DNA from: a virus
Virus record (IMG/VR): IMGVR_UViG_3300027834_000011
Coordinates: 1-44,744 of that record
Strand: one strand, 5' to 3'
Length of the DNA: 44,744 nt
Below the pieces are notes generated by a model, which made no database searches, was not told the DNA's origin, and was given only the letters and a program-made list of their open reading frames with translations. Made by a program: the position numbers and the translations under genes. Position 1 is the first letter of the stretch. The number at the start of each line of letters is the position of its first letter. Of this stretch, positions 7,559 to 31,883 are shown one piece after another.

Positions 7559-7568
7559 GGATTTAAAA

Positions 7569-8057: not shown

Positions 8058-8194
8058 TCAAATCTGTTTTGAGTGATTGGGAGTGATGGGATGAATTATG
8101 GTCGATTGGTTACCAACAGTTTTGTTGATTATGGCGTTTCTATTTCCCATCATCACAATCGCAAGGTTTGTGGATGGAATAAGGAATTGGTGGC

Positions 8195-11453: not shown

Positions 11454-11677
11454 TTAGACCACCTGTGGATGAACTCATCAGGAAGGTTCTCACAGCTATC
11501 TTCAGAATTGATTGAGTCAACTCTGAAGCACTCCCCTGTTGAGTGGCTAAAGTACACCACTGGAGTGATGAAGTATTTAGCAGCCACTAGGTTGATGGCA
11601 ACCACAATAAAGAGAAGCATCAAGAGGCCTGTCAACCGCTCTTTGAAGGTTGATGGCACCTTTGTCTTATCCCGCAT
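11450..11677 (-). CDS. Small membrane protein, hypothetical
   Basis: 75 aa with one TM segment (GLLMLLFIVVAINLVAAKYF). It overlaps both neighbours. Confidence 0.5.
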   Translation of the reverse strand: MRDKTKVPSTFKERLTGLLMLLFIVVAINLVAAKYFITPVVYFSHSTGECFRVDSINSEDSCENLPDEFIHRWSK

Positions 11678-12068
11678 CTTTAAGCTCCTTGCGCTCTTGA
11701 GCAGTCAACATTTTGCTATCACAAACTGGACACTTGGGCCTAGCCCAATCAAGACAGAGCTTGTTTGTTTTAAGCATGTATCCATCCTCTGGACAGCGCA
11801 AGTTGTAGTGCTTGACTTCATCAGAAAGCTTCTTCTTGGCTTCCTTCTCAGGGGCAGCTTCAGCTTTTGCGGTGATGATTTTCCAGACTTCTTTATCAGA
11901 GGCTTTAAGGCTCTTGACTTCTGCTGGGGTTGCTTCTTCCAAGGCTCTCTTTAGCTTGTCCATGCCAGTTGCCCTTGAGGCAAATCGCTTTACAGAAGAG
12001 ATTGTGATTGTGTTGTAGGCGGCAACTAGCTCTGGGCCAGTCAAAGTTGTTAAATCATAGTTCATCAT
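11667..12068 (-). CDS. Hypothetical protein with a C-terminal 4-Cys zinc ribbon
   Basis: 133 aa. The C-terminus NLRCPEDGYMLKTNKLCLDWARPKCPVCDSKMLT is homologous to the C-terminus of the SprT-like protein at 31884-32486. Confidence 0.6.
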   Translation of the reverse strand: MMNYDLTTLTGPELVAAYNTITISSVKRFASRATGMDKLKRALEEATPAEVKSLKASDKEVWKIITAKAEAAPEKEAKKKLSDEVKHYNLRCPEDGYMLKTNKLCLDWARPKCPVCDSKMLTAQERKELKDAG

Positions 12069-12129
12069 TAGTTCCTTTCATTTCTTTCACTCAGAATAGT
12101 ATCTTCTATTTTTGACCAGAAGGCAACAG

Positions 12130-14997
12130 TTAAGTTTCTTTTGAATTCAATGGCTTAACATAATCTTCATTTCCAGTTAGCTTTATGAAGCGCTTGATGT
12201 AAGCCTTTCTGAAGCCCTTCCTTGTCCTAGCTTTGAAGATGTACCAATCACCAATTTTGCCCTCATCAACAATCTTCTTTCCCCACTTTAGATAGTCATA
12301 GCGATTAATAGAGGCCATGATTGCATCAGTGTCATCCTCTAGGGTCATATTGAGATAGAGTGTTTGGCCTTGCATGATTGAGCCTCCCCTCTTCTCAATG
12401 TTGATTGGCTCATTGTGGTCACGTTGGTTTTTGGTTGCCAGCTTTGCTATGAACACAACCATGCCATTTGACTTGTCTGTTATGTCCTCAACATTTCTGA
12501 GCCGGGATGCAATGTTGTATGCGTCAGGGTCATCATAGATATGCCCCCAAAGGTCTTGTCCCTCCGAAATTGTATCATATGGGGTGACAGGATTGTCCAT
12601 CAACTTATGGTGGCGAGGGGTCAAGTCTCTTCCCTCTTCCCTCCGCAGCATGATGTCTGCTGCCATCTTGAGGCCAATCCCCTTGATGCCTATCAATCCA
12701 CCAATCAACTTGCCATCTTGAACTGACCATTGATCAGTAGAAAGCTCCTTGTTGAATGGCTCATATTCATAGCCCTCTTCTCTGAGCTCACGCAGGATTT
12801 TGATTGTTTGGTCATCATCCTTGGCGTGTCTCAAAGAGGCAGCAGCAAATTCAAGGTGGAATTTCCCTTTCAATAAACAACACCAATAGCTGATCAACCC
12901 ATAGGCCACAGCGTGAGATCGGTTGAAGGCCCATGAGCCCATGGTGTTAATCTTGCTCCAAATTTCTGCCGCTTTCTCTTCCTCAATCCCTTGGTTGGCA
13001 GCTCCCTTTTTGAATTGCTTCCACTGCTTGTCAAAGTATTCCTCACCAAGCGACTTGCTCATTGCCTTTCTGATTGAGGATGTTTCTTCCCATGAGAACT
13101 GGCCAATATCTCTAACAATCTGCATCACCTGCTCTTGATAAACAATCACCCCATATGTGACCTCTGTTATGTCCTTGGCCAGTGGATGAAGATATTCAAT
13201 TGGAGACTTGCCAGAGTGCCTTTCCAGCCACTCAGTAGCACCACCAGAGTTGAGAGGCCCGGGCCTAGCTAGAGCGGTGATTGATACCATGTCCTCAAAA
13301 TTCTTCATGGTGATCCGCTTGGTCAAGCTTTGCAGGGCATATCCCTCAAACTGGAAGATGCCAGAGAATTGTCCATTGTTGAGAACTTTAAAAGCTGCTG
13401 GATCATCTGTTGGGTACTCCATCAACTGCTCTCTAGTCCACCCAATTTGATCAAGGGTGTCTTGTAGCACTGAAAGGGTTCTAAGGCCCAGCGCATCAAT
13501 CTTCAGAAGATTAAGCTCCTCAGCATCATACTTATCCACCATGGAGGCTCCTGTGCGCTCATCCACTGAACAATAGTATGAAACTGGGTCTGCAGTCACT
13601 AGAATTCCAGCAGCATGTTGCCCTGTGTGCTTGGCATGTCCTTCAATATCTGTACAAACAACCATCTCAGGATATTTCTCAAGAACTCTCTGCCCCGGGG
13701 CAAGCTGCTCAAAGGTGTCCATGATGCAAAAGTTTGCCCGGCTGTCACCACCAGACCTTTCCAAGATTGAGTCTTTCAAATCCTTCATTTCCCATGCAGG
13801 GATGTTGAGTGCCTTTGCTACCTCCCCAATGGTTGACTTTGGCTTGAAGCGGTTGATGGTGCCTAGCCTAGCCACACACTCAGAGCCATACTTGTCCTTT
13901 AGGTAGTCAAACACCATGTCGCGCCTGTCATCTGGGAAGTCAATGTCAATATCAGGATAATCAGCCCGGTTGATATCAATGAAGCGCTCAAACAATAGTC
14001 CATATGGAATTGGATCAATCTCAGTTATTCTTAGGATATAGCAGACCAATGAGCCACAAGATGATCCACGAGCTGGACCCACAAGCATATTATCCTTGGC
14101 GAAGTCAATCATATCAGCCACGACATAGAAATAATCAGCAAAATCCTTCTCATCAATGAGGTCAAGCTCTCTCTTTAGCCTGTCACCATACACTGGGTCA
14201 GATAGGTCAACCCCTCTTGATGGTGCTGCCTCTTCACACATCTGCTTGAGTTTCTTCTCAACAACAGGCTTAACCATTTGGGCCTTTGGCAATTCCACTG
14301 TGCAACTCTCAGCAATTTCCTCTGCTGTTTTGATTGCCCGGTCAATGATTTCTTGGTCACACCAGTACAATTCCTCAGCCAACTCATATTCATTTATGAT
14401 GTGTTGCGCAGAAGCCTTTTTCTCAGCTCCCATGCTGCAGACAATCTGATATGGGCCAGAGCAATCTGGTGTTGGGTAATAGTTGTCAGAGCATGCCACA
14501 AAATCTCCATTTATTGCATCAACCTTCTCAGCATCCTTCTTTGTTGTAGTTGGATCAAGGGCATAGTATATATTGTCACCCTCATCAATCTTCATAACGG
14601 CTGACGCAGGAAGGATTAGAGTGATGTTTGTTGAGACATGCTTGATTTCCTCCCAATCCAATCTTGGGATATAGTAGAACTTTTCAGTGGCAAGCGTCAC
14701 CAACTCATAAAGCTCCTTGAGGCCAACTTCATTATTGGCAATCAGCCGGACCCAACTCACTCCCTGTTTGGTGCGCTCTTCCATGTCATCAACAATAGCA
14801 AGCTCTACGCCATAGATTGGCTTGATGCCCTTCTTGTCACAAGCCTTTTTCCACTGTACATGCCCCCAAGTTCCATGGCGGTCACACATCCCTGCTGACT
14901 TGCCATTCATATCAAGAACAACCTCAAGGCTTCCAAATGCTGCCCGGAATGAAAATTCAGTTCTGTTGCATAAATTTATCATCAATCTTGTATCCAT
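12130..14997 (-). CDS. dnaE: DNA polymerase III alpha subunit (DnaE-type)
   Basis: GPARGSSCGSLVCYILRITEIDPI, ERFIDINRADYPDIDIDF (catalytic Asp pair), HAAGILV, KIDALGLRTLSVL and an HhH-like GIKGIGLKMA. The start is taken at ATG 14997 (MDTRLMINLCNRTEFSF); the longest ORF extends to 15039. Confidence 0.9.
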   Translation of the reverse strand: MDTRLMINLCNRTEFSFRAAFGSLEVVLDMNGKSAGMCDRHGTWGHVQWKKACDKKGIKPIYGVELAIVDDMEERTKQGVSWVRLIANNEVGLKELYELVTLATEKFYYIPRLDWEEIKHVSTNITLILPASAVMKIDEGDNIYYALDPTTTKKDAEKVDAINGDFVACSDNYYPTPDCSGPYQIVCSMGAEKKASAQHIINEYELAEELYWCDQEIIDRAIKTAEEIAESCTVELPKAQMVKPVVEKKLKQMCEEAAPSRGVDLSDPVYGDRLKRELDLIDEKDFADYFYVVADMIDFAKDNMLVGPARGSSCGSLVCYILRITEIDPIPYGLLFERFIDINRADYPDIDIDFPDDRRDMVFDYLKDKYGSECVARLGTINRFKPKSTIGEVAKALNIPAWEMKDLKDSILERSGGDSRANFCIMDTFEQLAPGQRVLEKYPEMVVCTDIEGHAKHTGQHAAGILVTADPVSYYCSVDERTGASMVDKYDAEELNLLKIDALGLRTLSVLQDTLDQIGWTREQLMEYPTDDPAAFKVLNNGQFSGIFQFEGYALQSLTKRITMKNFEDMVSITALARPGPLNSGGATEWLERHSGKSPIEYLHPLAKDITEVTYGVIVYQEQVMQIVRDIGQFSWEETSSIRKAMSKSLGEEYFDKQWKQFKKGAANQGIEEEKAAEIWSKINTMGSWAFNRSHAVAYGLISYWCCLLKGKFHLEFAAASLRHAKDDDQTIKILRELREEGYEYEPFNKELSTDQWSVQDGKLIGGLIGIKGIGLKMAADIMLRREEGRDLTPRHHKLMDNPVTPYDTISEGQDLWGHIYDDPDAYNIASRLRNVEDITDKSNGMVVFIAKLATKNQRDHNEPINIEKRGGSIMQGQTLYLNMTLEDDTDAIMASINRYDYLKWGKKIVDEGKIGDWYIFKARTRKGFRKAYIKRFIKLTGNEDYVKPLNSKET

Positions 14998-16196
14998 GTT
15001 AGTTGTTCTTTGGCTCTGGTGACAGCAGTGTAAAGCCACTGCTTTCTGAATTCCTTTTTCTGCTTCATCATCTTATCATCAGCCACAATTACATTGTTCC
15101 ACTCGCTGCCCTGAGATTTATGGCAGGTGATGGCATAGGCATAATCCAACTCAAGAAGCCCTCGCCTTGAGAAGAAAGGCTCTTCCTTCTCCCCATCACT
15201 ATAGGTTTTAAGGCAGTGGTATTCATAGAACGGGACATCAGTGTAAATCTGTCCATCATATTCAACTGATATGAGCCACTGGCCACTATCATCAACATAA
15301 GCATCACCAATGCAGTTCATCTGGACCCCATTAATGAATGGACCTCTTTGTGCATTCTTGAGGCAGATTAAGCGCTCATCCTTCTGTGGGATTTGGCCTT
15401 CATATTCAAGCTTCTTTCTGAACCACTTGTTCAGCTTGTGGCGAGTTCTATTCATCCCAGTGATGACTTGATCAGCATCCATCCACTGTTGGTGAGTCAC
15501 TTCTGTCTTGGATACAATGCGACAAAGATCAGATTGATATTGCGCCCGGTCAACAGAGCCATTGCGCACATCCATAGATAGGCGAATGATTGGGCTTTCT
15601 AGCGCTTGTCTGTGAACCTCTTCCAAGACAGCATTGGGTGTGGCCTTTGTGAACCAGCCATCATCGCCAACTGGAGGAAGCTGCCCTCCATCACCAACAA
15701 ATAATATCTTTGCGCCAGTTGATACCAGATCATCTCTCATGGCCTTAGTTGCCATGGATGATTCATCAACAATTATGAGCTGATCTTTTGCTACATCTGG
15801 ACCACCATTATACTCAAAAGAAAGCTTTGAAGAGGTCAAATCCCTCCGCATATCTTCAACCTGTTGGCTCAACTCAAAGTCATCCGGGTTCTCTTTTAGC
15901 TTCTTCTTGAGAATTTCATATTCACCAGAGCCAGCAGAGTTTGGAGAGTAAAGGAGCTTGTGAACGGTGGTCACATCAATCCCATCAAGCTTGCTCTTTA
16001 AGACTGATGCAGCCTTACCAGTTGGCGCACAACAGGCTAGTGTTCCTGTGAAGGTGCTGGCCAGCTCTTGAAGGAGGAATGTCTTTCCAGTTCCAGCATA
16101 TCCATGAAGGGTGAAGAGGGGGTCACTTGAATTGGAGTACCAATCCTTGATGCCTTTGGCTGCATTGCTTTGTTCAACTGATAAAGTCATCAACAA
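14982..16196 (-). CDS. SF1B DNA helicase (RecD/Dda-like)
   Basis: Walker A GYAGTGKT, motif II IIVDESSM, FVGDGGQLPPV and the C-terminal YAITCHKSQGSEW. Confidence 0.85.
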   Translation of the reverse strand: MLMTLSVEQSNAAKGIKDWYSNSSDPLFTLHGYAGTGKTFLLQELASTFTGTLACCAPTGKAASVLKSKLDGIDVTTVHKLLYSPNSAGSGEYEILKKKLKENPDDFELSQQVEDMRRDLTSSKLSFEYNGGPDVAKDQLIIVDESSMATKAMRDDLVSTGAKILFVGDGGQLPPVGDDGWFTKATPNAVLEEVHRQALESPIIRLSMDVRNGSVDRAQYQSDLCRIVSKTEVTHQQWMDADQVITGMNRTRHKLNKWFRKKLEYEGQIPQKDERLICLKNAQRGPFINGVQMNCIGDAYVDDSGQWLISVEYDGQIYTDVPFYEYHCLKTYSDGEKEEPFFSRRGLLELDYAYAITCHKSQGSEWNNVIVADDKMMKQKKEFRKQWLYTAVTRAKEQLTWIQD

Positions 16197-16804: not shown

Positions 16805-16909
16805 TTACTCCTCTTTCTTCCTAGCCTTGGTGTTGTTTACAGCCCCTCCATTCTTGAAGTGGATTTCAGGGTGATCAGCCAAGAGCTTCTTTGCTGTTAT
16901 CTTGGCCAT
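16805..16909 (-). CDS. Possible 34-aa basic mini-protein (not in the ORF track)
   Basis: It translates to MAKITAKKLLADHPEIHFKNGGAVNNTKARKKEE. Its ATG shares a base with the MazG stop (TAATG), and it fills the otherwise empty 16800-16908 gap. Confidence 0.3.
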   Translation of the reverse strand: MAKITAKKLLADHPEIHFKNGGAVNNTKARKKEE

Positions 16910-17256
16910 TACACCCTCTCCTCAAATCCGAATTTCTCAGAGGTTGCATTGAACTTTTCTTTGATGATGTCTTCAAGATCAACACCCAGCTCATTGGCAA
17001 TCAAATCTGCATAGATTATCACATCAGCAATCTCTAGTGCAGCTTGCTTCTTTAGATCAGCCATGTCAGCTTCAGTCTCACGAGTGACAGCGCCTGTTTC
17101 AATGCGCCGGATTTTCTTGATCACATTACAAAGCTCACCTGTTTCACCAGCCAGAGCATTGCCCCAATCAGCCAAGCTCCACTTTTCACCTGAGTGCCAA
17201 GCCTCAGCCCGGGCAACACTTGCCTCTCTCAATCTTCTTAAAAAATCTAACATCAC
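16909..17256 (-). CDS. MazG-like nucleoside triphosphate pyrophosphohydrolase
   Basis: 115 aa, all-helical. GETGELCNVIKK and EIADVIIYADLIANELGVDLEDIIKEKF match the MazG acidic helix pattern. Confidence 0.75.
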   Translation of the reverse strand: MMLDFLRRLREASVARAEAWHSGEKWSLADWGNALAGETGELCNVIKKIRRIETGAVTRETEADMADLKKQAALEIADVIIYADLIANELGVDLEDIIKEKFNATSEKFGFEERV

Positions 17257-17456
17257 ACTAGTCCTTTCTCTGTTGCAAGCTGCTCAGTCATTGTTAAAAC
17301 TTTATCATAAGGGTCATATTCAACTTGGGACTTTGGCAGCCAAATCCCCTTTTTGTCCCCATCATCATCCCGGCTCTCACCATCCCAAACAAGATATGCT
17401 TTGGGTGTTTCATGGATGACTTCATGATCATCAACGTCAATCAAGTTGCTTTTCAT
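17253..17456 (-). CDS. Hypothetical protein
   Basis: TAATG coupling at 17456 (MKSNLIDVDD...KAYLVWDG...IWLPKSQVEY). 67 aa. Confidence 0.5.
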   Translation of the reverse strand: MKSNLIDVDDHEVIHETPKAYLVWDGESRDDDGDKKGIWLPKSQVEYDPYDKVLTMTEQLATEKGLV

Positions 17457-17992
17457 TACAGCAACCCCTTCTCTCTCATCCACTTGACGCAGGCGACAAG
17501 GGCTTCAGTGTCAGCCATTGCTCTGTGAGCACCTTCAAATTCTTCCCCTGTTGCCTCTTTGTATAGCTTGGCCAAGCTCAAGCGATAGCCATGGAGAGAA
17601 TAAGATTTCTCAACTGTACATATGTGGCGTGGAGGCCATGGGAATTGAAGTTGGCGACCTAGCCGGGCAAGCTCAAAGAACATCATCTTTCTATCAAAGT
17701 CAAGGTTGTGCGCCACAAGCGTTGTCTCACCAAGGAAGAAGCTAGCAAGCTTCCCATAGCTGGCTGAGAATGGCAGTTCATCTTTCAATAGATCATCTGT
17801 TATGCCTGTGATCTCAACAATCTTTGATGGGAGCTTTATCCCCGGATTGGCTAAGAATTCAAGGCGCTCAACCTCTTCAAGAGTTTCAGGATCAAGCTTA
17901 ATCCCAGCAAACTCAATTATCTGTGGCTGTTGTTTCAAGGGTACAGCATCACCCTTCGCAAATCCAGTTGTCTCTGTGTCAAAAATTATCAC
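17456..17992 (-). CDS. DEDDh 3'-5' exonuclease (DnaQ/epsilon-like)
   Basis: ExoI IIFDTETTG, ExoII VAHNLDFDRKM, ExoIII GAHRAMADTEAL (H-x4-D). Confidence 0.85.
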   Translation of the reverse strand: MIIFDTETTGFAKGDAVPLKQQPQIIEFAGIKLDPETLEEVERLEFLANPGIKLPSKIVEITGITDDLLKDELPFSASYGKLASFFLGETTLVAHNLDFDRKMMFFELARLGRQLQFPWPPRHICTVEKSYSLHGYRLSLAKLYKEATGEEFEGAHRAMADTEALVACVKWMREKGLL

Positions 17993-18308
17993 AATAAAAT
18001 TCCTCTTCTTCTTTCTGCCTTATGGCAATCAATTCAAAATATTCATCCCAGCTCTTTGGGAGCCTTGTATCATCTTGGGTGCGCATGTGATCAAATACAC
18101 CTTCACAACTCCATATAGTCTCAGCACCGTTGGCCACATCGCACTGCCCATCATTGTTGCTCTGGCAGCTTTCGCATTCCCCCTTGTCCATCTCATAGTA
18201 GCTTTCAGCCCACTGGGAGCCGTTGCACTTGCCTCCGCTTATCCTATGGGGGAAGTCATAGGCATCACAGAGACAAGTGACATTTATTCTAGGGTGATCT
18301 TTCATCAT
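17979..18308 (-). CDS. Cys-rich hypothetical protein (putative metal-binding)
   Basis: The start is taken at ATG 18308/18305 (MMKDHPRINV). It has 8 Cys in ~60 aa, including CLCDAYDFPHRISGGKC and ECESCQSNNDGQC. Confidence 0.5.
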   Translation of the reverse strand: MMKDHPRINVTCLCDAYDFPHRISGGKCNGSQWAESYYEMDKGECESCQSNNDGQCDVANGAETIWSCEGVFDHMRTQDDTRLPKSWDEYFELIAIRQKEEEEFYCDNF

Positions 18309-18804
18309 CGCTGAATAGATCACCTTGGCCACCAGCGAGTTGATCAGCCTCTTTAAGCATGAAGGCATACACCCCAAGGTCTGTGATTGAGTCCTCATGG
18401 CCACCAGCATCATAGTTGTGGCAGTAACGAGTAAGCTTGACCACAATCAATTCCAATAGGTGGAACCGCATGAAGTCATCATCTGTCTTGAGATTAACTC
18501 CATCAGGGAATAGATTGGCCATGACTGGCCCAACACGCTTATAGTTGTCACCATAGACTGCATTGCGCTCCTGATAAAGTTGCGCTGCTGCACCAAGGTG
18601 GTGACCAGCATTTAAGGGGGAGCCATGAGATTTGTGGATTGCATTCCACTTTGATGGATCAAATTCCTCTGGCCCAATTGGCAAGCACTCAACTTTTGGG
18701 GCATATTGAAGCCCATCCTCAGTTCGCACCCTCTGCTTTGAGTCTGTGTGTTGCACTGTGCTGTCATAATCATGAACCGCCGCATGAAAGGGGTATGAAG
18801 TCAT
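18289..18804 (-). CDS. MazG-like all-alpha NTP-pyrophosphatase-fold protein with an N-terminal fibre-like motif
   Basis: The C-terminal two thirds (QERNAVYGDNYKRVG...FMRFHLLELIVVKLTRY...GGHEDSITDLGVYAFML) resemble the K.DYG...DK..R...DS..DL..Y pattern of MazG/DUF1599-type domains. The N-terminal YAPKVECLPIGPEEFDPSKW matches tail fibre residues 77-96. Confidence 0.5.
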   Translation of the reverse strand: MTSYPFHAAVHDYDSTVQHTDSKQRVRTEDGLQYAPKVECLPIGPEEFDPSKWNAIHKSHGSPLNAGHHLGAAAQLYQERNAVYGDNYKRVGPVMANLFPDGVNLKTDDDFMRFHLLELIVVKLTRYCHNYDAGGHEDSITDLGVYAFMLKEADQLAGGQGDLFSDDERSP

Positions 18805-19292
18805 TATTCATCTCCCTTTTCAATGCGCATGATCAACTTAAGGTCGAAGCCAAACAAGCCCCGGGTGTTGTATATGCGATAGTGATAGCGGCGACCAGTC
18901 TCAAGCAGCTTGGAGTTGGTGTGATCAACCGTTCTAACATCTTGGATGATCTCAAATGGCAAGTTTTCTGGCATCTCATCAACATGCATCCCAATGTGGC
19001 TCATGAATGTTCCAGAGCGCCCAGCCGATTTATGCCAGTTTGGCCCACTCTTATAATCAAGGATTTCAAATTCAATCCCTGACTCATAGTGGAAATACAG
19101 ATCAGCTTCTGTGTTGCCATAATCGCCATGGACCTTTCCGCTAGTGGTGACACTGTCAGTGATCCACTTTGTTAAGTCATAGCCCCCAAGGAAGCACCCA
19201 GCAAAGCTGCTATCCATTTTGGCCAATTCAACCATAACACCATCCACATCATCAGTGGCAATGGCAATTTGTTCAATCTTAAAGTTTATCAT
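18804..19292 (-). CDS. VOC (glyoxalase/dioxygenase-fold) family protein
   Basis: The start is taken at ATG 19292 (MINFKIEQIAIATDDVD...). It has FEILDYKSGPNW and SHIGMHVDE. The assignment is by eye. Confidence 0.45.
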   Translation of the reverse strand: MINFKIEQIAIATDDVDGVMVELAKMDSSFAGCFLGGYDLTKWITDSVTTSGKVHGDYGNTEADLYFHYESGIEFEILDYKSGPNWHKSAGRSGTFMSHIGMHVDEMPENLPFEIIQDVRTVDHTNSKLLETGRRYHYRIYNTRGLFGFDLKLIMRIEKGDE

Positions 19293-19305
19293 GTTAGTTC
19301 CTCTC

Positions 19306-20040
19306 TTAAAGCCCAAATGGGATGATACACCCATGGAAGTATTTGTGGTGGTATTTATCTTGTAAAAGGTGCGCAATGAATTGAGCAAGAGCCTCTGGTG
19401 GTGTCTCTTCACCAATGGCCAAGCCCTTCAATTGGTACTCCTTTGCTTCTTCAAATGTCCAACCGCGCATCTCTGGCACTCGGTTGTCAATGTAATCACT
19501 CATGCCAGTCCCGGATAGCTTGTTGGGAGCAATGCCAAAGACTGTTATCCCATGGCGAGGGAATAGCTCTCTAGCAAGTTGCTTTGTCATGATATCAGCT
19601 GCAGCCTTACTTGCGTTATATGCCAAGGAGGATGTCATTGGCATGTGGGATGCGTTTGATGTGATATTGAGAATTGTCCCGGCTGACTCCTTAAGCCTCT
19701 TCCGAAAGATTTGTGACGTGAAAAGGATTGACATGGCATTGGTATCAAGAAGCCTGTCCCAATCTTTTTGCTCAATGTCCTCTAGGAAGTCAATGCAATT
19801 TACGCCAACACAGTTGATGACAATATCAACCCCGCCAAGGTGCTCAAAGGCGCTTTCAATATCAACCTTTGATCTGACATCACCCATCTTTAGGTGATAG
19901 TGTGAATCACGAATTCTGTCAATTGGCTCTTTGGCATCAAATTTGTCAAATCCATACACTGTGTGTCCATAGCCCAAAAGCTCTTTGCATATTGCTAGGC
20001 CTAATCCGCTTGATGCGCCTGTTACAACTATTCTACTCAT
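19306..20040 (-). CDS. Short-chain dehydrogenase/reductase (classical SDR)
   Basis: ATG 20040. Cofactor motif VVTGASSGLGLA, NCVGV, and catalytic S...YNASKAA (YxxxK). Confidence 0.85.
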   Translation of the reverse strand: MSRIVVTGASSGLGLAICKELLGYGHTVYGFDKFDAKEPIDRIRDSHYHLKMGDVRSKVDIESAFEHLGGVDIVINCVGVNCIDFLEDIEQKDWDRLLDTNAMSILFTSQIFRKRLKESAGTILNITSNASHMPMTSSLAYNASKAAADIMTKQLARELFPRHGITVFGIAPNKLSGTGMSDYIDNRVPEMRGWTFEEAKEYQLKGLAIGEETPPEALAQFIAHLLQDKYHHKYFHGCIIPFGL

Positions 20041-20311
20041 TTCTTGACCCTTCTTTTGTATCAATTTGGGAGGCAAGAAGCTTGAACATCTTAAGCTCAC
20101 AACGCTTGATGCGCCCTTTTGTGTTTTCAATTGCGATGTTTAGACAAGGCTCAATGACATTCAAATAGTTGAAATCAAGCAAGCTGCCATTTACACCAAA
20201 TCTGACCTTCTCATGGGTGGACTTTGAGGCTGTTGGAATTTGTGCATTTTCTAGCCCAGCAAGAGTTTCAACCAAGTTCTGGTGGTGTTCTGTCAATTTT
20301 TCCATGCCCAT
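20033..20311 (-). CDS. Hypothetical protein
   Basis: TGATG coupling at 20311. 92 aa. No motif recognised. Confidence 0.45.
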   Translation of the reverse strand: MGMEKLTEHHQNLVETLAGLENAQIPTASKSTHEKVRFGVNGSLLDFNYLNVIEPCLNIAIENTKGRIKRCELKMFKLLASQIDTKEGSRNE

Positions 20312-20805
20312 CAGTAATCTCCCTTTTGGCATTGGAGGCAAGTGACACCATTATCACGCCACATATCAACAACCCGGTCCCGGTCATCAATGGCTGCAAC
20401 AACAGTGCCAAGCATCCTTATCTCATCAAGCATCTCTTTCTTGACAACATCATCTGAGCGATAGTCCCCATCAGATCGGAAATAAACTCCATGCGGGTTG
20501 ATGCCATACTTAGCAAGCCAATCTAGGGTCTTTTTGACTACCTCTGGTGTGCCCATTCGACCTGTACAGATCATGATGTTGCTGACTTGCTTTAAGCTTG
20601 AGAACAGCTCAACAATGTCCCACTTTGGCTCATCCTTATCGCAAGCTAGATTGAATGCATTCCAGTCAACTTTCTTGCGCTCTTCATCACTGTCACTATA
20701 GCCCCTAATGAAGTGCAAGCGGTGGCTGATATCAGCAAGAGTTCCATCTAAGTCAAAGATGTATATGAATGATCCATCTATTTCTTGAAGTGCTTTTCTA
20801 AACAT
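20311..20805 (-). CDS. HAD-superfamily phosphatase (nucleotidase / PNK-phosphatase-like)
   Basis: Motif I FDLDGTLAD, motif II ICTGR, and a Lys plus acidic motif KKEML...AIDDRDR. Confidence 0.75.
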   Translation of the reverse strand: MFRKALQEIDGSFIYIFDLDGTLADISHRLHFIRGYSDSDEERKKVDWNAFNLACDKDEPKWDIVELFSSLKQVSNIMICTGRMGTPEVVKKTLDWLAKYGINPHGVYFRSDGDYRSDDVVKKEMLDEIRMLGTVVAAIDDRDRVVDMWRDNGVTCLQCQKGDY

Positions 20806-20807
20806 GA

Positions 20808-21536
20808 CTAAGCCTTTCTCAACAAATCAACGTGTTTCAGTTGCTGAATGTAATCCTCTTGAGAGAGCGCTCCAGCCTCAAATGCACCCTTAAGAGCTGC
20901 CTCAAGCTCTGCTGATGCATCTTTCCCTTTAGGGAATAAGAAAGCCTCAGCCCAAGGGTGAACCTCAAAGATGGCCTCAACCATCATGTCAAACACATCT
21001 CTATATTCACTTTGGGTTCTTAGCCCAACCCGGCTCTTTGCCATCTCTGACATTGTTCTCAGGTTGAATTGAGCAATGATGTTGGTGTGGATGTTTGTTG
21101 GCAACACCCCTCTGGCATCTTCTGCTGGAATTCCAATCTCAAGCATGGCATCATAGGCATCTTGGATTTGTGCCATGGAGCGTTGATAAATCGCCAGCGC
21201 ACCACCATGATCAGCAATCTTTTTAGGCACCAAATATCCAAACTTCTCCATCTCCAACATCCGCATTGTCTGTTGAGCATAGGAGCCTGTGCGAGTTCTC
21301 ACAAACTGGTGAGTGAAAGCTCTGGTGACTCCCCGGATTTCAAATGTGTAGTTGACAAACTCCCAAGAAGAGGGGATTGTGTTGGCCATATAGTCCAACT
21401 CCGCTTGCTTCTGTTCTGGGGTCATGTCCTTGATTTTCTGCTCTGTATCTTCACAAAGCTCAAGGCGAGTTGACTTGGTATAAAGCAGCTTGTCCACTGC
21501 ATTATGTGTGGCATCAATTAATCTTACACTAGGCAT
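20808..21536 (-). CDS. thyX: Flavin-dependent thymidylate synthase ThyX with a variant signature
   Basis: WEFVNYTFEIRGVTRAFTHQFVRTRTGSYAQQTMRM aligns to the ThyX block ...hQlvRHR..S....S.R. AEDARGVLPTNIHTNIIAQFNLRTMSEM and QSEYRDV also match. The signature reads RTR..S....T.R instead of RHR..S....S.R. Confidence 0.8.
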   Translation of the reverse strand: MPSVRLIDATHNAVDKLLYTKSTRLELCEDTEQKIKDMTPEQKQAELDYMANTIPSSWEFVNYTFEIRGVTRAFTHQFVRTRTGSYAQQTMRMLEMEKFGYLVPKKIADHGGALAIYQRSMAQIQDAYDAMLEIGIPAEDARGVLPTNIHTNIIAQFNLRTMSEMAKSRVGLRTQSEYRDVFDMMVEAIFEVHPWAEAFLFPKGKDASAELEAALKGAFEAGALSQEDYIQQLKHVDLLRKA

Positions 21537-22116
21537 TGCGCTTCCCCTTAAGGCCAATTTGTTTGTTCAATTCGCCAAATTGCACTGCTGGCAATCCGGG
21601 CTTGGGTGTTTCAGTGACAGTCCCCAAAGCTCTATCAATGGCTGGGATTGCCTCTGGCCAGATATCCTTCAGCGCCTTGACACTTGAAACACTCGCCAGT
21701 GCCACCTCAGTCTTTCTGGTGATTGCCATTTGCTCTTTGGTAAGAACTAAGGCTTTGGCGTATTCCTTCTCAGCCCAAATAGTTGCTGAGTGGTCAACAG
21801 GGAGCTTAAGTGTGTAAGGTGTGTTGTCTGGGAGTGGAATTTTCTCACCAAACTGGACTTGGATTCGTCCGGGATTGCTGCTATATGAGCCAAAAAGGAC
21901 ATATGCACAAGACTTGCTTTCAAGCCAACCTTTAGGCAGAGAATTAATCTTTGCCCAATCAGCTTTTGATATCTGTGCAAGATATACTTTCTTGGCCTTT
22001 TCTGCAATCCTATCATGAATTGCTTGCTCTTTTGCTTGAAGCTCTTTGAGCTTATCACCAATGAGCTCATGCAGGATTGCACTTCTCAAGTTGGCATTTA
22101 ATCGAATAGATGACAT
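21529..22116 (-). CDS. Hypothetical protein in the ThyX neighbourhood
   Basis: ATG 22116 lies 1 nt after the upstream stop, with AAGGAG upstream. 195 aa (MSSIRLNANLRSAILHELIG...). It may belong to a nucleotide-modification-associated family, but I could not verify this. Confidence 0.5.
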   Translation of the reverse strand: MSSIRLNANLRSAILHELIGDKLKELQAKEQAIHDRIAEKAKKVYLAQISKADWAKINSLPKGWLESKSCAYVLFGSYSSNPGRIQVQFGEKIPLPDNTPYTLKLPVDHSATIWAEKEYAKALVLTKEQMAITRKTEVALASVSSVKALKDIWPEAIPAIDRALGTVTETPKPGLPAVQFGELNKQIGLKGKRNA

Positions 22117-22117
22117 G

Positions 22118-23056
22118 TTATTCTCCTTTTGCTTTGAGCATGCGCTCATAGGCTGTTTTGTTATCAATAAATTGGGATATCACTTTGATGTCATTCACAA
22201 CATCATCTAGGAGGATTTGCCTCCAAGTTGCAAAGCGCCCAAGGCTGTAGATGTTGTGTTGTTCAGTCATGGCAATGATAAAGTTTCTGCGCTTCTCTTC
22301 ATCTGCTGGTTGCAGCTTGCCGAATTTCTGGAACTTCAATTCACCCTCTGGTCTTATTGGAATGTCAATGCCAAAGAACTTCTTTAATAGGTGGATGGAA
22401 AGCTCACCAGCAATCTCTGTATCAACCGGGCGCTCAATGAATTCAAGAATGAACTTATTTCCAGTGATGCTTGCGCGATAATATGAGCGAAACTCATCCG
22501 GGAAATACACTGTTTGATAGACATCACACTCAATGGGGATGTCAAAGCTGTATGACCAAATTGGGAGGAAGTCAAAATCAGGCCTTTGATCCTCTGGCCA
22601 GCCAACAATATCCATCAACACAGGCATAGGGAGTGTTGAGATGATTGGTGAGCCATCAGAGGGCTTGAGATTTGTCAAGCCAATTCGATTTCCAAAGCGT
22701 ATATCAGCCCCTCTTGAGCATTGCTCAATAAAATTAGGGGGTGCAATAAATCGCTTTGATGGAGCCAAGTTCACAGAAGAGCGTGAGAGGATTTTCCCTG
22801 TCACCTTTCTTGAGTATCGGTTGTTGGCTTCAATGGTTGTTTCGCTGCACAGCTCATTCTGGATAACAATGCCCTTGATGACATCAACCTCTCTGAATGG
22901 GATGCCTGTGGCCTCAGACACAGCTTGGCTTCTAAAGCGCAATAGGGCTGCATGATTGTTAGGGAGGCTGTCTTGGGCCTCATATACAACAGGCTCATGC
23001 CTACGCAACACACTTGCTGCTAGCAATCCTGCCATCCCTGATCCAAAAATCCTCAT
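22118..23056 (-). CDS. Rossmann-fold flavoprotein-like oxidoreductase
   Basis: N-terminal dinucleotide-binding motif RIFGSGMAGLLAA...VVYEAQ. The C-terminal GRFATWRQILLDDVV is reminiscent of the UDP-galactopyranose mutase / amine-oxidase-type flavoenzyme tail. 312 aa. Confidence 0.55.
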   Translation of the reverse strand: MRIFGSGMAGLLAASVLRRHEPVVYEAQDSLPNNHAALLRFRSQAVSEATGIPFREVDVIKGIVIQNELCSETTIEANNRYSRKVTGKILSRSSVNLAPSKRFIAPPNFIEQCSRGADIRFGNRIGLTNLKPSDGSPIISTLPMPVLMDIVGWPEDQRPDFDFLPIWSYSFDIPIECDVYQTVYFPDEFRSYYRASITGNKFILEFIERPVDTEIAGELSIHLLKKFFGIDIPIRPEGELKFQKFGKLQPADEEKRRNFIIAMTEQHNIYSLGRFATWRQILLDDVVNDIKVISQFIDNKTAYERMLKAKGE

Positions 23057-23635: not shown

Positions 23636-24466
23636 TTACATTGGATCATCATCGTTTTCTTCAACATCACCCTCACTAGAGTGCTCTTGAACTTTGACAT
23701 CACCAGAGGAAATCTGTTCACGGAACTTTTTAGCCTCCATGTAGATTTCGCTGCCACCGGGCAGATCAACTGTGTTATCCGCACCAGCGATTTTCCAACC
23801 AAACCAATCACCAGAAGCATTGCTCTCTGGGGTGGTGGTCATCATATAGGAGCGATAGAACATAGCAGGGTTGAATGTCCCACTGCCATCCGCTTTTTCA
23901 AGGCGAAGTTGATTGATCATTGTATTCCAGCGCTTGGCTTTCTTAAGCTGCGTGCTGGACATTGAGATCACTGCAGGGCTGAATGCGCCAGTTTCTGGAT
24001 CAATAATGAACACAAAGTATTCAGAAGTGGTCACAATATTGGTGCCTTTGCCAGTGCAATCCCGGTTCTTATCATCTTTTGTTGTCCCGTTGAGGACAGA
24101 TGAATCATTACCATGGTCAGCAACAAAGCCACCACCATCTTCACGGAGCTTCCACTCAATGTATGCGCGGCGATAACTAACTGGAACAACCAGCAAGCCA
24201 ACCTCACCATCAATGACAGTGCCGCTCACTGAGTCAAGCACCATGCCTTCTTCAGCGCCATCAATATAGGCATCATCTTTCTTTTTGACTTGAGGTGATA
24301 GGGTTTGAAGAATAGAGAGGCGAGGGATTGTGAAATCATCCTTGTCCATATTCTCCTGACCAGCACCAGCATCATCTTCAAAGTTCACAGCAGAAGTAGC
24401 TACTGCTGTTGATCCCTTCTCTGCTGACTTAACAGCCGTTTTAGTATTCTTCTTCTCAGTTGCCAT
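23636..24466 (-). CDS. Hypothetical protein with an acidic C-terminal tail (possible ssDNA-binding/recombination protein)
   Basis: AAGGAG RBS, 276 aa, a disordered N-terminus, and an acidic tail SSEGDVEENDDDPM as seen in phage SSBs. It lies at the head of the replication arm. The function is not established. Confidence 0.35.
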   Translation of the reverse strand: MATEKKNTKTAVKSAEKGSTAVATSAVNFEDDAGAGQENMDKDDFTIPRLSILQTLSPQVKKKDDAYIDGAEEGMVLDSVSGTVIDGEVGLLVVPVSYRRAYIEWKLREDGGGFVADHGNDSSVLNGTTKDDKNRDCTGKGTNIVTTSEYFVFIIDPETGAFSPAVISMSSTQLKKAKRWNTMINQLRLEKADGSGTFNPAMFYRSYMMTTTPESNASGDWFGWKIAGADNTVDLPGGSEIYMEAKKFREQISSGDVKVQEHSSEGDVEENDDDPM

Positions 24467-24502
24467 GGGAATTATCTCCTTGTTTGGCGTTTCACCAGCA
24501 CA

Positions 24503-25105
24503 CTATCGTGCTTTTGTGATTTTAGCCTTGCGGCCTGTGTAGACTGCGAATGTGTCAAATGGGACATCCTCACCAGCAGCCAATTTCTCACGCACCCAAG
24601 CTGAAAGCGTTTGTGCGTTTACTGATTTGTTGTGATCTGCATCCAAGCCATAAGTTTCAGAGACTTGCGCAATGATATCACCAGCAATGTTTCCACCACC
24701 CTTGCCAACATCAATGACCACTTCATCTTTGATGATTGCACCAGAGCCAGCATCAGTTAGGTATTTGATGCCATCCTCAAAGCGGGTGCGCATCTCTTCT
24801 TGCTTATCTTCATCCCTCTGCTTATTGATATTAAGGAGGGTGGGAAGAGCGGCCTTGATGATTGGCATGATCTTGATTTTTGTCCCATCACTTAGGGAGA
24901 ATTCAGACATGCCAGCAGCATCCATTAGGTCTGGAAGATCAACTGTTTCAATGGCTGAATATTGACCTTCAAGCTCTTTGAGGCTGTCTTTTGCTGTCTT
25001 GATTTTAGTTGCAAGATTGTCCATCTTAGTAGCTGCATCAGAAATCGCTTTGAGGTCTTGTGGGGCAGCACTTTTGCTGTCATCTTCAAAATTTGGGGTA
25101 CTCAT
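24503..25105 (-). CDS. Hypothetical protein with an N-terminal coiled coil
   Basis: 200 aa. A coiled segment (ISDAATKMDNLATKIKTAKDSLKELEGQYS) is followed by a globular part. The family was not recognised. Confidence 0.5.
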   Translation of the reverse strand: MSTPNFEDDSKSAAPQDLKAISDAATKMDNLATKIKTAKDSLKELEGQYSAIETVDLPDLMDAAGMSEFSLSDGTKIKIMPIIKAALPTLLNINKQRDEDKQEEMRTRFEDGIKYLTDAGSGAIIKDEVVIDVGKGGGNIAGDIIAQVSETYGLDADHNKSVNAQTLSAWVREKLAAGEDVPFDTFAVYTGRKAKITKAR

Positions 25106-25123
25106 GTTGAGCCTTTCTTTTCT

Positions 25124-25498
25124 TTAACTATCTGTGCGAAGGGTCAAAGGTACATATTCACCTTTTGATCCATTGCGCTTGCCATCCTCACCAACCATTC
25201 GGTCCCATAGGAGGAAGCGAATTTCAGTGAAGCCATATCCCATCAGCACCATTACACATGCCCAGATTGCAGCCGGGTCACCAGTATTAGGCCAAAGGAG
25301 ATAATCAGTGTGAGGATTGAATGCATCAAGTCTGTCCCTCGCAACACGCATCATGGTGTTAGGGTCAGATGATACTTGCTCATCAGGCTCAAATACGAAT
25401 TCACACTTGCCATACTTAAGAGCAGGTGTCAAATCCGGGGTCCAGCCAACGGCGTTGGCTTTTGGGCGCTGAGAAACATAAACTGTTGATTGTGGCAT
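25124..25498 (-). CDS. Hypothetical protein (first gene of the long leftward operon)
   Basis: 124-aa ORF immediately left of the divergent intergenic region. Confidence 0.5.
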   Translation of the reverse strand: MPQSTVYVSQRPKANAVGWTPDLTPALKYGKCEFVFEPDEQVSSDPNTMMRVARDRLDAFNPHTDYLLWPNTGDPAAIWACVMVLMGYGFTEIRFLLWDRMVGEDGKRNGSKGEYVPLTLRTDS

Positions 25499-29080: not shown

Positions 29081-29361
29081 CACAACCCAAACCAATGAAA
29101 GTTCTTAGCCAGAGTGACAAAGATGAATGCAATGATGAAGGTGGCAGGGAAGTCAATTTGGCTGTCCGGCTTCCACTTGATAGGATTAGGTTCATCACCG
29201 TTTTGGGTGTATTCCCGGATGTATGCCACCAATAGGGAGGCTGCTAGGCCATCCCAACCATCAGGGAGGATCAAGACCAGTGCCATGGCGATTGTACCGC
29301 CAATGGCGTGTTTAAACTTGTCTTGGTTGCGCTGATAAAAGGCTTTCAATTTACTCAACAT
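29080..29361 (-). CDS. Small membrane protein, hypothetical
   Basis: ATG 29361 lies inside the end of the upstream gene. Two hydrophobic segments (GGTIAMALVLILP; FPATFIIAFIFVTLA). Confidence 0.5.
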   Translation of the reverse strand: MLSKLKAFYQRNQDKFKHAIGGTIAMALVLILPDGWDGLAASLLVAYIREYTQNGDEPNPIKWKPDSQIDFPATFIIAFIFVTLAKNFHWFGL

Positions 29362-30505
29362 TGTCCAAGCCCTCTCCATCAGTGTATTCCACCTCAATGC
29401 AGGCAAGGCGATTATGCCCAAGAGCTGCATCAGCCAAAGCCTTTGTTGGGTGGCGATAGCAAAAAGCCTTATACACATTCAACCAAATGGTTGTTTTCTC
29501 TGGTGGGGTGTTGATCAAGTCTGTTGGCTTCTCACCAACATCCGCTTCCAAGTATTTGCCCTCAGATGTATAGGTGCGGATATCTTCATCACCATCACCA
29601 TACATGACTACTGCCACAATTGGATAATGCCCACCAGCCTTATAAGTTGTGATTATCCTTGCTGCAATTCCCGCTCTGGTTTGAACAGGCTTTGTTGGGT
29701 CAAAGGTTGGAGTTGCCTCTTTAGGTGTCTCTTCAGAAGTTTTAGCCTTAACCTGTACAGCAAATAGATTTGACAGTGCGTCAACTGCTGTGTCCATCGG
29801 GAGAGGGTTCTTTTCATTATTGATGGCTGTTAACACACCTTCCATGGCGCCTTCAATTGACCAGCAATAGTCCCAGTAGCCATGGTTTATCTCAATAAAG
29901 TTGTCACTGTATTTCCCAAGAGGGTCCATTCCTGCATCTGAGTTGGCAATTCTCCACCCACTCTTTGCGCCATCAAACAGCACAATTGCGCCATCTTCTG
30001 CTTTTGCCATAATTGGAAAAGACAAATCTTCAATTGCTGTCTCACTAAGGGGCTTTGGCTTCACAGCCTCCGCACTTACATTTAGATTGATTGTTCCAGT
30101 AGTCATTTTAGTTCCTTTCTTAGTTCCGTTTTTGATTTTAATGTTGTTTATAGTTCGCCTTATGGCTTCGCGTTGCTCTGGGGTAATTGTTGATGGCTTA
30201 TTCAAGTTGTTCAACACCTCTTTTGGTGGAGGGCAAAGGCCATCCCTATTCTTAATTAGATACTCACCAGAGGCAAGGGGTTGCCCCGCCTTTCTAAATG
30301 CTTGTTCCATCTCAATCATGGCATCAGCAAATGCCCGGTCTGTTGCCTTCCATGCCTTGGCCAAGTCATTAGCCTGCATGCGCTTCATTGCCCTTACAGC
30401 AGCAATTTTCATCTCTTCCCGGGCTTTCTTGGTTGCTCTTCTGTGCTTCAATTCCTTGAATATCCACTTGAGCTCAGAGATTGTGTGTTTCCAATATGAT
30501 CTCAC
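29351..30505 (-). CDS. Hypothetical protein
   Basis: 384-aa ORF with GTGA coupling at 30505, a basic helical N-terminal third, then a globular part. No domain recognised. Confidence 0.5.
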   Translation of the reverse strand: MRSYWKHTISELKWIFKELKHRRATKKAREEMKIAAVRAMKRMQANDLAKAWKATDRAFADAMIEMEQAFRKAGQPLASGEYLIKNRDGLCPPPKEVLNNLNKPSTITPEQREAIRRTINNIKIKNGTKKGTKMTTGTINLNVSAEAVKPKPLSETAIEDLSFPIMAKAEDGAIVLFDGAKSGWRIANSDAGMDPLGKYSDNFIEINHGYWDYCWSIEGAMEGVLTAINNEKNPLPMDTAVDALSNLFAVQVKAKTSEETPKEATPTFDPTKPVQTRAGIAARIITTYKAGGHYPIVAVVMYGDGDEDIRTYTSEGKYLEADVGEKPTDLINTPPEKTTIWLNVYKAFCYRHPTKALADAALGHNRLACIEVEYTDGEGLDNVE

Positions 30506-31879: not shown

Positions 31880-31883
31880 GATC

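Follow-up and report, generated by a model that had tools for sequence, protein, structure and literature searches.

Pbunaviruses are among the most used therapeutic Pseudomonas phages, and in 2025 a sugar-type thymidine hypermodification not seen before was found in them. The DNA of Pbunavirus F8 is resistant to restriction enzymes with TG in their site, and by liquid chromatography-mass spectrometry about one quarter of the thymidine is replaced, at TG, by a nucleoside of 362 U in F8 and of 390 U in phage 14-1, read as a tetrose sugar-alcohol derivative and a cyclised aldopentose derivative, respectively (Yee et al., bioRxiv 2025, PMC12191111). Pbunavirus carries no known hypermodification genes and the authors of that study name no biosynthetic genes (PMC12191111); in the literature searched we found no later paper assigning genes to the Pbunavirus modification. 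An older, anecdotal study reported incomplete digestion of a PB1-like phage by EcoRI and HindIII, and both enzymes cut F8 DNA (Yee et al., PMC12191111). Wifcevirus phages are resistant to every restriction-modification (RM) system tested apart from EcoP1_I (type III), and no mechanism that would protect them is known (PMC11990801). Here we analysed IMGVR_UViG_3300027834_000011, a stretch of 44,744 nt from an uncultured phage (the window, taken at its full length), in which a block of minus-strand genes is organized around a ThyX with an altered signature and a flavoprotein whose fold resembles that of UDP-galactopyranose mutase (UGM). This block is the nucleotide-metabolism arm of a conserved replication module, and both Pbunavirus and Wifcevirus carry that module. 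Tentatively, and with slightly less than even confidence, we read the block as a variant of the module that is behind, or contributes to, the Pbunavirus-type sugar- or polyol-thymidine hypermodification.

Eight open reading frames (ORFs) lie back to back from 23056 down to 18289, and a ninth gene that a preliminary description of this DNA had grouped with them is located at 16909-17256. The number, common orientation and tight packing of these nine ORFs were confirmed, since an independent gene caller returned identical products of 312, 195, 242, 164, 92, 244, 162 and 171 amino acids (aa) from three assemblies of the contig, and the intergenic junctions within the array range from -8 to +13 nt. 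The eight genes of the block are as follows.

22118-23056, minus strand: flavoprotein, 312 aa, UGM-like fold, core gene (GSGMAG motif, phrog_4828, AlphaFold2 model with Foldseek)
21529-22116, minus strand: Nmad5 protein, 195 aa, rare accessory gene (PF18757, phrog_1965)
20808-21536, minus strand: ThyX, 242 aa, clade-specific, core gene (Thy1, TIGR02170)
20311-20805, minus strand: haloacid dehalogenase (HAD) phosphatase of the PNKP type, 164 aa, core gene (PF25109, phrog_415)
20033-20311, minus strand: 92-aa protein, unique to the window phage (gene caller; no relatives found)
19306-20040, minus strand: classical short-chain dehydrogenase/reductase (SDR), 244 aa, accessory gene (adh_short)
18804-19292, minus strand: vicinal oxygen chelate (VOC) protein, 162 aa, accessory gene that follows the SDR gene (Glyoxalase_4 matches of relatives)
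18289-18804, minus strand: DUF6378-family helical protein, 171 aa, core gene (PF19905 matches of relatives; C-terminal part of phrog_4889)

The block had been described as an island, a view that the surrounding genes do not support: the array continues past 18289 through a Cys-rich 114-aa gene into genes for DnaQ, MazG, a PIF1/RecD-like helicase and a DnaE-type polymerase, and many phages keep the core of the block together as a unit. A scan for promoter and terminator consensus sequences inside the array yielded nothing exceeding chance, so that an operon boundary inside the block cannot be drawn.

Conservation of the module was evaluated in 53 IMG/VR loci where 6 kb or more of DNA follows the flavoprotein gene. 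ThyX was found in all 53, adjacent to or closely downstream of the flavoprotein, followed in frequency by DnaQ directly after the module (50/53), DUF6378 (46/53) and HAD (42/53). The SDR gene was present in 18 of the 53 loci, VOC in 7 and Nmad5 in 1. The nine genes thus do not form the single unit that had been presumed: five parts make up a conserved core tied to the replisome and are kept together across phages, while SDR, VOC and Nmad5 are patchy and the 92-aa gene is unique to this phage. Exhaustive HMMER searches recovered 1179 flavoprotein clusters at 50% identity, nearly all of them single-domain proteins of 300-335 aa, and 362 cultured phage records encode the flavoprotein, including Pbunavirus, Wifcevirus-type coliphages and phages of Serratia, Pantoea, Erwinia, Aeromonas, Vibrio, Ralstonia and Rhizobium. 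The same type of ThyX (at least 80% coverage) was found in 367 cultured records; compared as totals and genus counts, flavoprotein and ThyX numbers agree for Pseudomonas (292/292), Escherichia (27/27) and Serratia (9/9). Among the ten most frequent organism names in the flavoprotein search there were no actinophages and no Bacillus or Clostridium phages, which carry more distant ThyX proteins. Annotated relatives carry the genes in the order flavoprotein, ThyX and HAD/DUF6378, with SDR and VOC next in some and DnaQ and DnaE last; their HAD and DUF6378 parts are often fused and wrongly labelled "polynucleotide kinase". Synteny by tblastn and jackhmmer places the window among carriers of the Pbunavirus-type module (flavoprotein, ThyX, HAD, DUF6378, DnaQ, DnaE). 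The closest relative, locus L007, has a flavoprotein 52% identical to that of the window and a near-identical gene set including Nmad5, SDR and VOC. Megablast gave no match to the block among 50,697 phage records, and at the DNA level the window phage is novel.

Restriction-site avoidance was examined by comparing the observed counts of the 64 six-base palindromes with an order-4 Markov expectation; a site was scored as depleted if Poisson p was <0.01 and its expected count was 3 or more. In the window none of 15 sites containing TG/CA was depleted, compared to 8 of 27 other sites (hypergeometric p ~0.02). The 28 non-redundant module carriers, window included, showed depletion of 0/307 TG/CA sites and 52/560 others (Fisher 1e-10), or 0/280 and 20/353 when CG-containing sites were excluded, and every other dinucleotide class in this set showed 2-11% depletion. 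Pbunavirus 14-1 alone gave 0/16 for TG/CA sites and 10/41 for others. In contrast, two phages of the same host without the module had depleted TG/CA sites, namely phiKMV (4/13, others 16/33) and LUZ24 (4/15, others 6/38); CTGCAG and GTGCAC are absent from both, and CAGCTG also from phiKMV. These two served as the negative controls, a search for phiKMV polymerase relatives having returned only near-identical genomes. LUZ24 (L105) carries at 7377-13075 a cluster of amidoligase, glutamine amidotransferase, RimK-like and gamma-glutamyl cyclotransferase genes; this cluster might modify something, and LUZ24 is therefore not guaranteed to be an unmodified control. Depleted palindromes in the window include AGATCT, TCTAGA, CCTAGG, GGCGCC and GCTAGC. 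Of its 48 palindromes without TG/CA, 23 are wholly absent (for example AGATCT, TCTAGA, CCTAGG, GGATCC and ACCGGT), compared to none of the 16 that contain TG/CA. This sparing fits a clade-wide protection of TG-containing sites; the palindrome test is silent on which genes are responsible.

The dinucleotide composition of the window is extremely biased for a phage genome of 46% GC. The observed/expected ratios are 0.36 for CG, 0.52 for TA, 1.41 for TG/CA and 0.73 for AC/GT, and ACGT and TCGA occur 9 and 15 times, respectively, where base composition predicts about 172. The strong depletion of CpG and the excess of TG/CA were considered as a link to the TG motif and rejected, since they are common to L007 and several low-GC relatives and absent in Pbunavirus; the dinucleotide bias is probably a host or lineage trait.

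The flavoprotein had been described as a Rossmann enzyme with a likeness to UGM, and this likeness is borne out at the level of the fold. The protein carries a GxGxxG Rossmann motif (GSGMAG), gives a weak NAD_binding_8 match without belonging to a Pfam family, and matches phrog_4828 at 9e-73. Its AlphaFold2 model, built from a 44-sequence alignment, has a predicted local distance difference test score (pLDDT) of 90.6, and in a Foldseek search of the PDB with this model most of the best matches, the first nine among them, are UGMs (E 7.6e-11 to ~1e-9, probability 1.00), at template modelling (TM) scores of 0.54-0.68; next come LSD2, renalase and enzymes of the p-hydroxybenzoate hydroxylase type. 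The family profile has YRAS/T and GRFxxWR motifs in common with Trypanosoma cruzi UGM, with an E value of 0.45 against the PDB profile. The comparison with Glf at the sequence level gave no family match: the Pfam GLF domain has no match in the window flavoprotein, and hhalign of the flavoprotein family against Escherichia coli Glf aligned only 24 N-terminal residues, the Rossmann motif, at a probability of 16%, so that active-site residues are not comparable. The FAD Rossmann motif and overall fold are therefore alike (E ~1e-10, TM up to 0.68), whereas the window protein, at 312 aa, is shorter than bacterial UGMs (~367-390 aa) and eukaryotic ones (~500 aa), and its genomic partners are nucleotide enzymes, not glycan genes. 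We therefore class it as a UGM-fold protein and not as a UGM. One representative of the family (P0164, 506 aa, metagenomic) joins a YfbR-like HD-domain 5'-deoxynucleotidase (~34-162) to the flavoprotein domain (191-501), a fusion that could be a gene-calling artefact.

The fold invites a second explanation, in which the flavoprotein, SDR and VOC proteins act on sugar nucleotides, remodelling host surface glycans or glycosylating the virion, with ThyX a neighbour by genome organization. The UGM-like fold, the resemblance of the SDR to sugar or polyol dehydrogenases and some database records that label the Pbunavirus homologue galactopyranose mutase are in line with it. However, ThyX accompanies the flavoprotein in every one of the 53 loci, which span phages of very different type and host, and annotation of the genome gave no glycosyltransferase, flippase or sugar-activating enzyme. 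The fusions seen in relatives point to deoxynucleotide metabolism, and the flavoprotein has no GLF-family sequence match. We consider a role in envelope sugars most unlikely.

The ThyX protein scores 124.3 bits against Thy1 (cut-off 24.8) and 90.5 bits against the thyX equivalog TIGR02170 (cut-off 87.9). Its signature reads RTRTGSYAQQTMR in place of RHRxxSxxxxSxR, with RHR changed to RTR. Compared to Thermotoga maritima ThyX (TM0449), Q75, R78, R80, S83, R90, R147 and R174 are kept, and the window protein carries the changes H53I, H79T, E86Q, S88T and Y91M as well as Arg at H178. To place these changes, 69 non-identical flavoprotein-linked ThyX sequences, Pbunavirus included, were compared: all 69 have Ile or Val at position 53, 53 have Thr at position 79, 66 have Gln at position 86, none has an aromatic residue at position 91, and the dUMP-binding residues Q75, R78, R80, R90, R147 and R174 are invariant, save for one sequence gapped at 147 and 174. 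The variant signature singled out in the preliminary description is real at this locus; it is not special to this phage, being common to the whole flavoprotein-linked clade. Relative to canonical ThyX (T. maritima TM0449, PBCV-1 A674R), fold, family and dUMP-binding residues are the same, while the window and clade proteins differ at positions 53, 79, 86, 88, 91 and 178. By these residues the enzyme looks competent for dUMP binding and dTMP synthesis.

These ThyX results bring in the explanation of ordinary deoxynucleotide supply for a phage with a DnaE replisome. In that case the flavoprotein would be an NAD(P)H-dependent redox partner of a ThyX lacking His53 and His79, the MazG, DUF6378 and HAD proteins would serve pool sanitation or salvage, SDR and VOC would belong to auxiliary metabolism unrelated to DNA, and any TG modification would be encoded elsewhere, for example by the ORFs without recognisable relatives (ORFans) at 29.3-31.9 kb. 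Because ThyX retains its dUMP-contacting residues and passes the thyX cut-off, plain dTMP synthesis is sufficient to explain it. In addition, the clade changes fall on the flavin/NADPH/folate side of the enzyme (H53I, H79T), which could make the enzyme depend on a reductase, the fold matches of the flavoprotein include renalase and NAD(P)H-bound UGM structures, and the block sits inside a replication gene array. On the other hand, no ThyX is known to need a partner flavoprotein, a flavin reductase with a UGM/amine-oxidase fold would be unusual, the HAD and DUF6378 proteins, the YfbR fusion and Nmad5 exceed what dTMP supply needs, and TG/CA sparing and the Pbunavirus adducts would be left without candidate genes, as no other small-molecule enzymes were detected. 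Overall, we regard ordinary supply as less likely than not, though it is the main rival of hypermodification.

The HAD protein was correctly recognised from its DLDGTL motif and is of the PNKP phosphatase-domain type (HAD_PNKP, PF25109, 101.6 bits, cut-off 27.6; phrog_415), with a DDRD motif as well. In Pbunavirus, Kyle and Gekk3-15 the HAD domain is fused to a DUF6378 domain. The Pbunavirus gene annotated as "polynucleotide kinase/phosphorylase" (14-1, F8) contains no kinase domain and consists of HAD, an acidic low-complexity linker and DUF6378; the length of the linker is the chief difference between F8 and 14-1 in this gene. The separate 171-aa protein of the window had been called MazG/DUF1599-like, an identity that profile and fold searches did not support. 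It has no Pfam match, MazG and DUF1599 included; 9 of 30 relatives match PF19905 (DUF6378), the precomputed homologue annotation gives the same family, and the conserved domain (~60-160) matches the C-terminal part of phrog_4889. Its AlphaFold2 model (pLDDT 69.8) is helical over 50-156, with the four longest helices within 66-156, and found nothing in the PDB with E<0.9 by Foldseek; an EExxE-type motif is absent from the invariant residues of the family. The protein is accordingly placed in DUF6378 through its relatives, and a MazG fold was not confirmed by profiles or Foldseek. The 115-aa protein at 16909-17256, in contrast, is the MazG-like protein it was taken for (PF12643, 28.9 bits, cut-off 27; phrog_229).

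The preliminary description had combined two pyrophosphatases and a nucleotidase into a scheme of nucleotide exclusion, leading to replacement of a whole base by deoxyuridine (dU), 5-hydroxymethyldeoxyuridine (hmdU) or another fully substituted base. Exclusion of a canonical dNTP by pyrophosphatases and nucleotidases occurs in hmdU and dU phages. A MazG-like enzyme and a HAD phosphatase are indeed present, and one relative carries the YfbR-like fusion; the 171-aa protein is not demonstrably a pyrophosphatase, and the logic of the scheme is unproven. Moreover, in the relatives with measured DNA only about a quarter of T is replaced, in a sequence context, and canonical T is kept, sites without TG are still avoided, indicating that protection is not genome-wide, and ThyX looks capable of making dTMP. 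We find this scheme very unlikely, and both whole-base replacement and an envelope-sugar role less likely than either deoxynucleotide supply or hypermodification.

The 195-aa protein, previously listed as an ORFan, is Nmad5 (PF18757, 45 bits, cut-off 27; residues 4-189, model 1-205 of 206), in agreement with the precomputed annotation, and also matches phrog_1965. Of the other module loci, only that of the closest relative, L007, has a detectable copy. A word-indexed homologue search with Nmad5 returned the query protein only, and a pattern scan of IMG/VR gave two distant Nmad5 loci with uninformative contexts. One distant Nmad5 on a 70-kb viral contig (L093:4357-9616) lies amid a phosphoribosyltransferase, the Tad3 Thoeris inhibitor, an ATP-grasp protein, a methyltransferase and a GT2 glycosyltransferase, and may mark another modification or counter-defence cluster. 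The use of Nmad5 as a marker of thymidine modification was rejected because the distant loci have unrelated contexts. The paper on the Dhillonvirus Nmad5 gives genetics only and no chemistry. As described earlier, the SDR is of the classical type (adh_short, 124.7 bits; TGASSGLG and YNASK motifs), and the SDRs of two cultured phages, Kyle and Gekk3-15, share 45% identity with it. In the PDB it comes closest to reductases of the acetoin/butanediol, glucose/ribitol and FabG types. A FolM, PTR1 or QDPR identity was considered and rejected, as no such pteridine-reductase signal occurs among the best 25 of 214 NCBIfam matches or the best PDB matches, which are FabG, acetoin, glucose/ribitol and DhbA-type enzymes.

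The VOC fold proposed for the 162-aa protein rests on its relatives. The window protein itself reaches only a weak glyoxalase profile score (E=0.078), while 6 of 14 relatives match Glyoxalase_4 (best 4.8e-10), the family profile matches PDB 3gm5 at 3e-4, and Q8, E74, E76, H99, H103 and H124 are invariant in the family. The assignment, made from profiles, is weak for the window protein and appears secure for the family. VOC proteins at L012:13180-13989 and L034:11047-11976 carry a ~100-aa N-terminal DUF1599/Nmad1-like extension, one of which gives E=0.042 against PF07659. The 92-aa protein remains the ORFan it was said to be: it is called by the independent gene caller, has no PHROG or NCBIfam match and only a sub-threshold Pfam NKAIN match (E=0.011, 15.6 bits, cut-off 25.9), and jackhmmer found no relative in 88 related loci.

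Having set deoxynucleotide supply beside it, we return to the reading we tentatively favour, that the module contributes to the synthesis of a hypermodified thymidine of the sugar or polyol type located at TG. Here ThyX would carry out C5 one-carbon chemistry on dUMP, the flavoprotein would handle a sugar-derived group, the HAD enzyme would remove phosphate from a nucleotide or sugar-phosphate intermediate, and the MazG-like enzyme would shape the dNTP pool, with SDR and VOC, and perhaps Nmad5 and the 92-aa protein, tailoring the attached group in the window phage; every individual reaction step of this pathway we infer. Since the closest folds of the flavoprotein are UGMs, which are sugar-nucleotide flavoenzymes, the protein fits a sugar-type adduct, and the YfbR fusion, the fusion of VOC to a DUF1599-like extension and the position of Nmad5 near ThyX were also counted in favour of hypermodification. 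The idea of a non-canonical nucleotide or hypermodification pathway in the preliminary description thus finds support in the literature on F8, 14-1 and Wifcevirus and in the TG/CA sparing; the step from the module genes to the Pbunavirus modification we infer from their co-occurrence.

That step is the first of several points that weigh against hypermodification, many of which speak for ordinary deoxynucleotide supply at the same time. The specificity for TG implies a DNA-level enzyme that reads sequence, and nothing in the block resembles one. The module proteins of F8 and 14-1 are 81-97% identical, with no obvious difference to explain the adducts; since the adducts differ all the same, the module alone cannot set the adduct. 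ThyX keeps all its dUMP-binding residues and passes the equivalog cut-off, and the flavoprotein, which by sequence is outside the UGM family, could be no more than a reductase. The distribution of SDR, VOC and Nmad5 across loci is patchy, and the SDR is generic. Nmad5 occurs elsewhere in unrelated contexts, such as near a capsid gene in Dhillonvirus, with Rad52, or in the ATP-grasp, methyltransferase and GT2 cluster. F8 and 14-1 are the only carriers with measured modified DNA, and the window phage is uncultured. The palindrome test had two negative controls only, and the module carriers share ancestry. Finally, many ORFs of Pbunavirus and of the window are unannotated and could encode the real pathway.

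A more specific form of the hypermodification pathway can be drawn by analogy. UGMs form a covalent iminium between flavin N5 and sugar C1, and ThyX passes a flavin-N5 methylene iminium to C5 of dUMP. The flavoprotein and the clade ThyX might together act as a "sugar-thymidylate synthase" that couples an aldose, or its phosphate, to deoxyuridine C5 in a nucleotide or residue. Reduction by flavin hydride or cyclisation would come next, HAD would then remove the phosphate, and SDR and VOC would alter the redox state or stereochemistry of the sugar in the window phage. In mass terms, dU (228) less H plus 1-deoxypentit-1-yl (135) gives 362, a reduced pentose adduct, and dU less H plus C-hexosyl (163) gives 390, a cyclic hexose adduct; both values agree with the masses published for F8 and 14-1. 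We consider this form unlikely because it leaves the TG specificity unexplained, which argues for an additional DNA-level step.

Downstream of the block, the replication genes are arranged as follows.

17979-18323, minus strand: Cys-rich 114-aa protein, between the block and dnaQ (phrog_5016)
17456-17992, minus strand: DnaQ-type 3'-5' exonuclease, at the junction of the block with the replisome genes (RNase_T, 87.6 bits)
16909-17256, minus strand: MazG-like all-alpha NTP pyrophosphohydrolase, 115 aa (PF12643, phrog_229)
14982-16190, minus strand: PIF1/RecD-like helicase (precomputed Pfam AAA_30, UvrD_C_2)
12130-14982, minus strand: DnaE-type DNA polymerase III alpha subunit, after the helicase (precomputed Pfam PHP, DNA_pol3_alpha, DNA_pol3_finger)

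The Cys-rich ORF (17979-18323) overlaps the 3' end of the DUF6378 gene by ~35 nt, and the DnaE protein shows 40-42% identity with polymerases of Vibrio, Ralstonia and Pseudomonas phages. Close to the block on its upstream side, at 23636-25498 (minus strand), lie members of the Pam3_gp32, DUF7307 and Pam3_Gp34 families, two of which are named after Pseudanabaena phage Pam3. The 200-aa and 276-aa members of this trio recur in many module loci and the third was seen again in L007; the 276-aa member has an acidic tail, EENDDDPM, reminiscent of single-stranded DNA-binding proteins. The three assemblies of the genome, made from different samples (JGI, ENA ERZ27237540 and Logan SRR5248753; L089, L090, L106 and L107), span 44,647-44,758 bp with different end points. 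As the contig ends are permuted between assemblies, the genome is probably complete, with circular permutation or terminal redundancy. Precomputed Pfam annotation of all called genes gave siphovirus-type structural genes, terminase, portal, helicases, a primase-helicase and lysis genes. As the preliminary description had stated, the 44.7-kb genome has no detectable kinase, glycosyltransferase, methyltransferase or aGPT-Pplase by Pfam of all called genes and PHROG scans of ORFans, nor, by the same scans, a ThyA-family dUMP hydroxymethylase or 5-HMUDK; if the DNA is modified, there are therefore few other enzyme candidates. Three adjacent co-oriented ORFans of 384, 228 and 234-240 aa at 29351-31897 (minus strand), without Pfam or PHROG match, are a possible hiding place for unrecognised DNA-acting enzymes. 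This trio adjoins a weakly SprT-like 200-aa protein (31884-32486, phrog_6361).

The module has been sequenced many times before, and what is new here is a concrete candidate for a recently discovered hypermodification: a testable gene set for the Pbunavirus modification, comprising the UGM-fold flavoprotein, the atypical ThyX, HAD and its DUF6378 partner. The phage clade that this gene set defines is very large, spanning more than 1,000 protein clusters and many hosts and morphotypes, and TG/CA-site sparing, a signature that can be read from sequence alone, suggests a clade-wide modification. Were the module to act in hypermodification, it would provide a new biosynthetic logic for modified DNA, and the sugar-thymidylate synthase route would need neither an hmdU kinase nor an aGPT-Pplase. 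It would also help to explain the RM resistance of Wifcevirus and would predict which uncultured phages are targeted by modification-dependent nucleases, such as END nucleases. The variants with SDR and VOC (window, Gekk3-15, Kyle) would be expected to carry a different adduct.

Among known systems, the thymidine hypermodification pathways of M6, ViI, SP10 and PaMx11 share with the proposed role the target base and a partial, context-dependent substitution, and their genes likewise adjoin thymidylate-synthase-type and nucleotidase genes, with Nmad5 in some clusters, for example that of Pam3 (Lee et al., PMC8989533). They differ in that the window lacks a ThyA-family dUMP hydroxymethylase, the 5-HMUDK P-loop kinase, aGPT-Pplase, and pyridoxal-phosphate and radical S-adenosylmethionine enzymes, and has ThyX and the UGM-fold flavoprotein instead; the flavoenzyme gp47 of PaMx11 is MnmC1-like and not related in role to the window flavoprotein. 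In Pam3, Nmad5 lies between aGPT-Pplase1 and a thymidylate-synthase homologue, so that in both phages it is immediately upstream of a thymidylate-synthase-type gene and accompanied by a nucleotidase; the Pfam match of the window protein covers the full model, and the Pam3 and Dhillonvirus proteins are 26-32% identical to it. The nearest system is the module of Pbunavirus (14-1 gp57-gp66, F8 gp056-gp065), Wifcevirus, Kylevirus, Serratia phage MTx and Aeromonas phage Gekk3-15. Gene order is alike throughout, and identity to the Pbunavirus-type module is 37-39% for the flavoprotein, 39-50% for ThyX and 37-42% for DnaE. Compared to Pbunavirus, a 66-kb myovirus, the window phage has a genome of ~44.7 kb with siphovirus-type tail genes, lacks the small ORFs found there between flavoprotein and ThyX, encodes HAD and DUF6378 as separate genes, and adds Nmad5 and its unique 92-aa gene to the module, while the SDR and VOC genes are found in Gekk3-15 and Kyle too.

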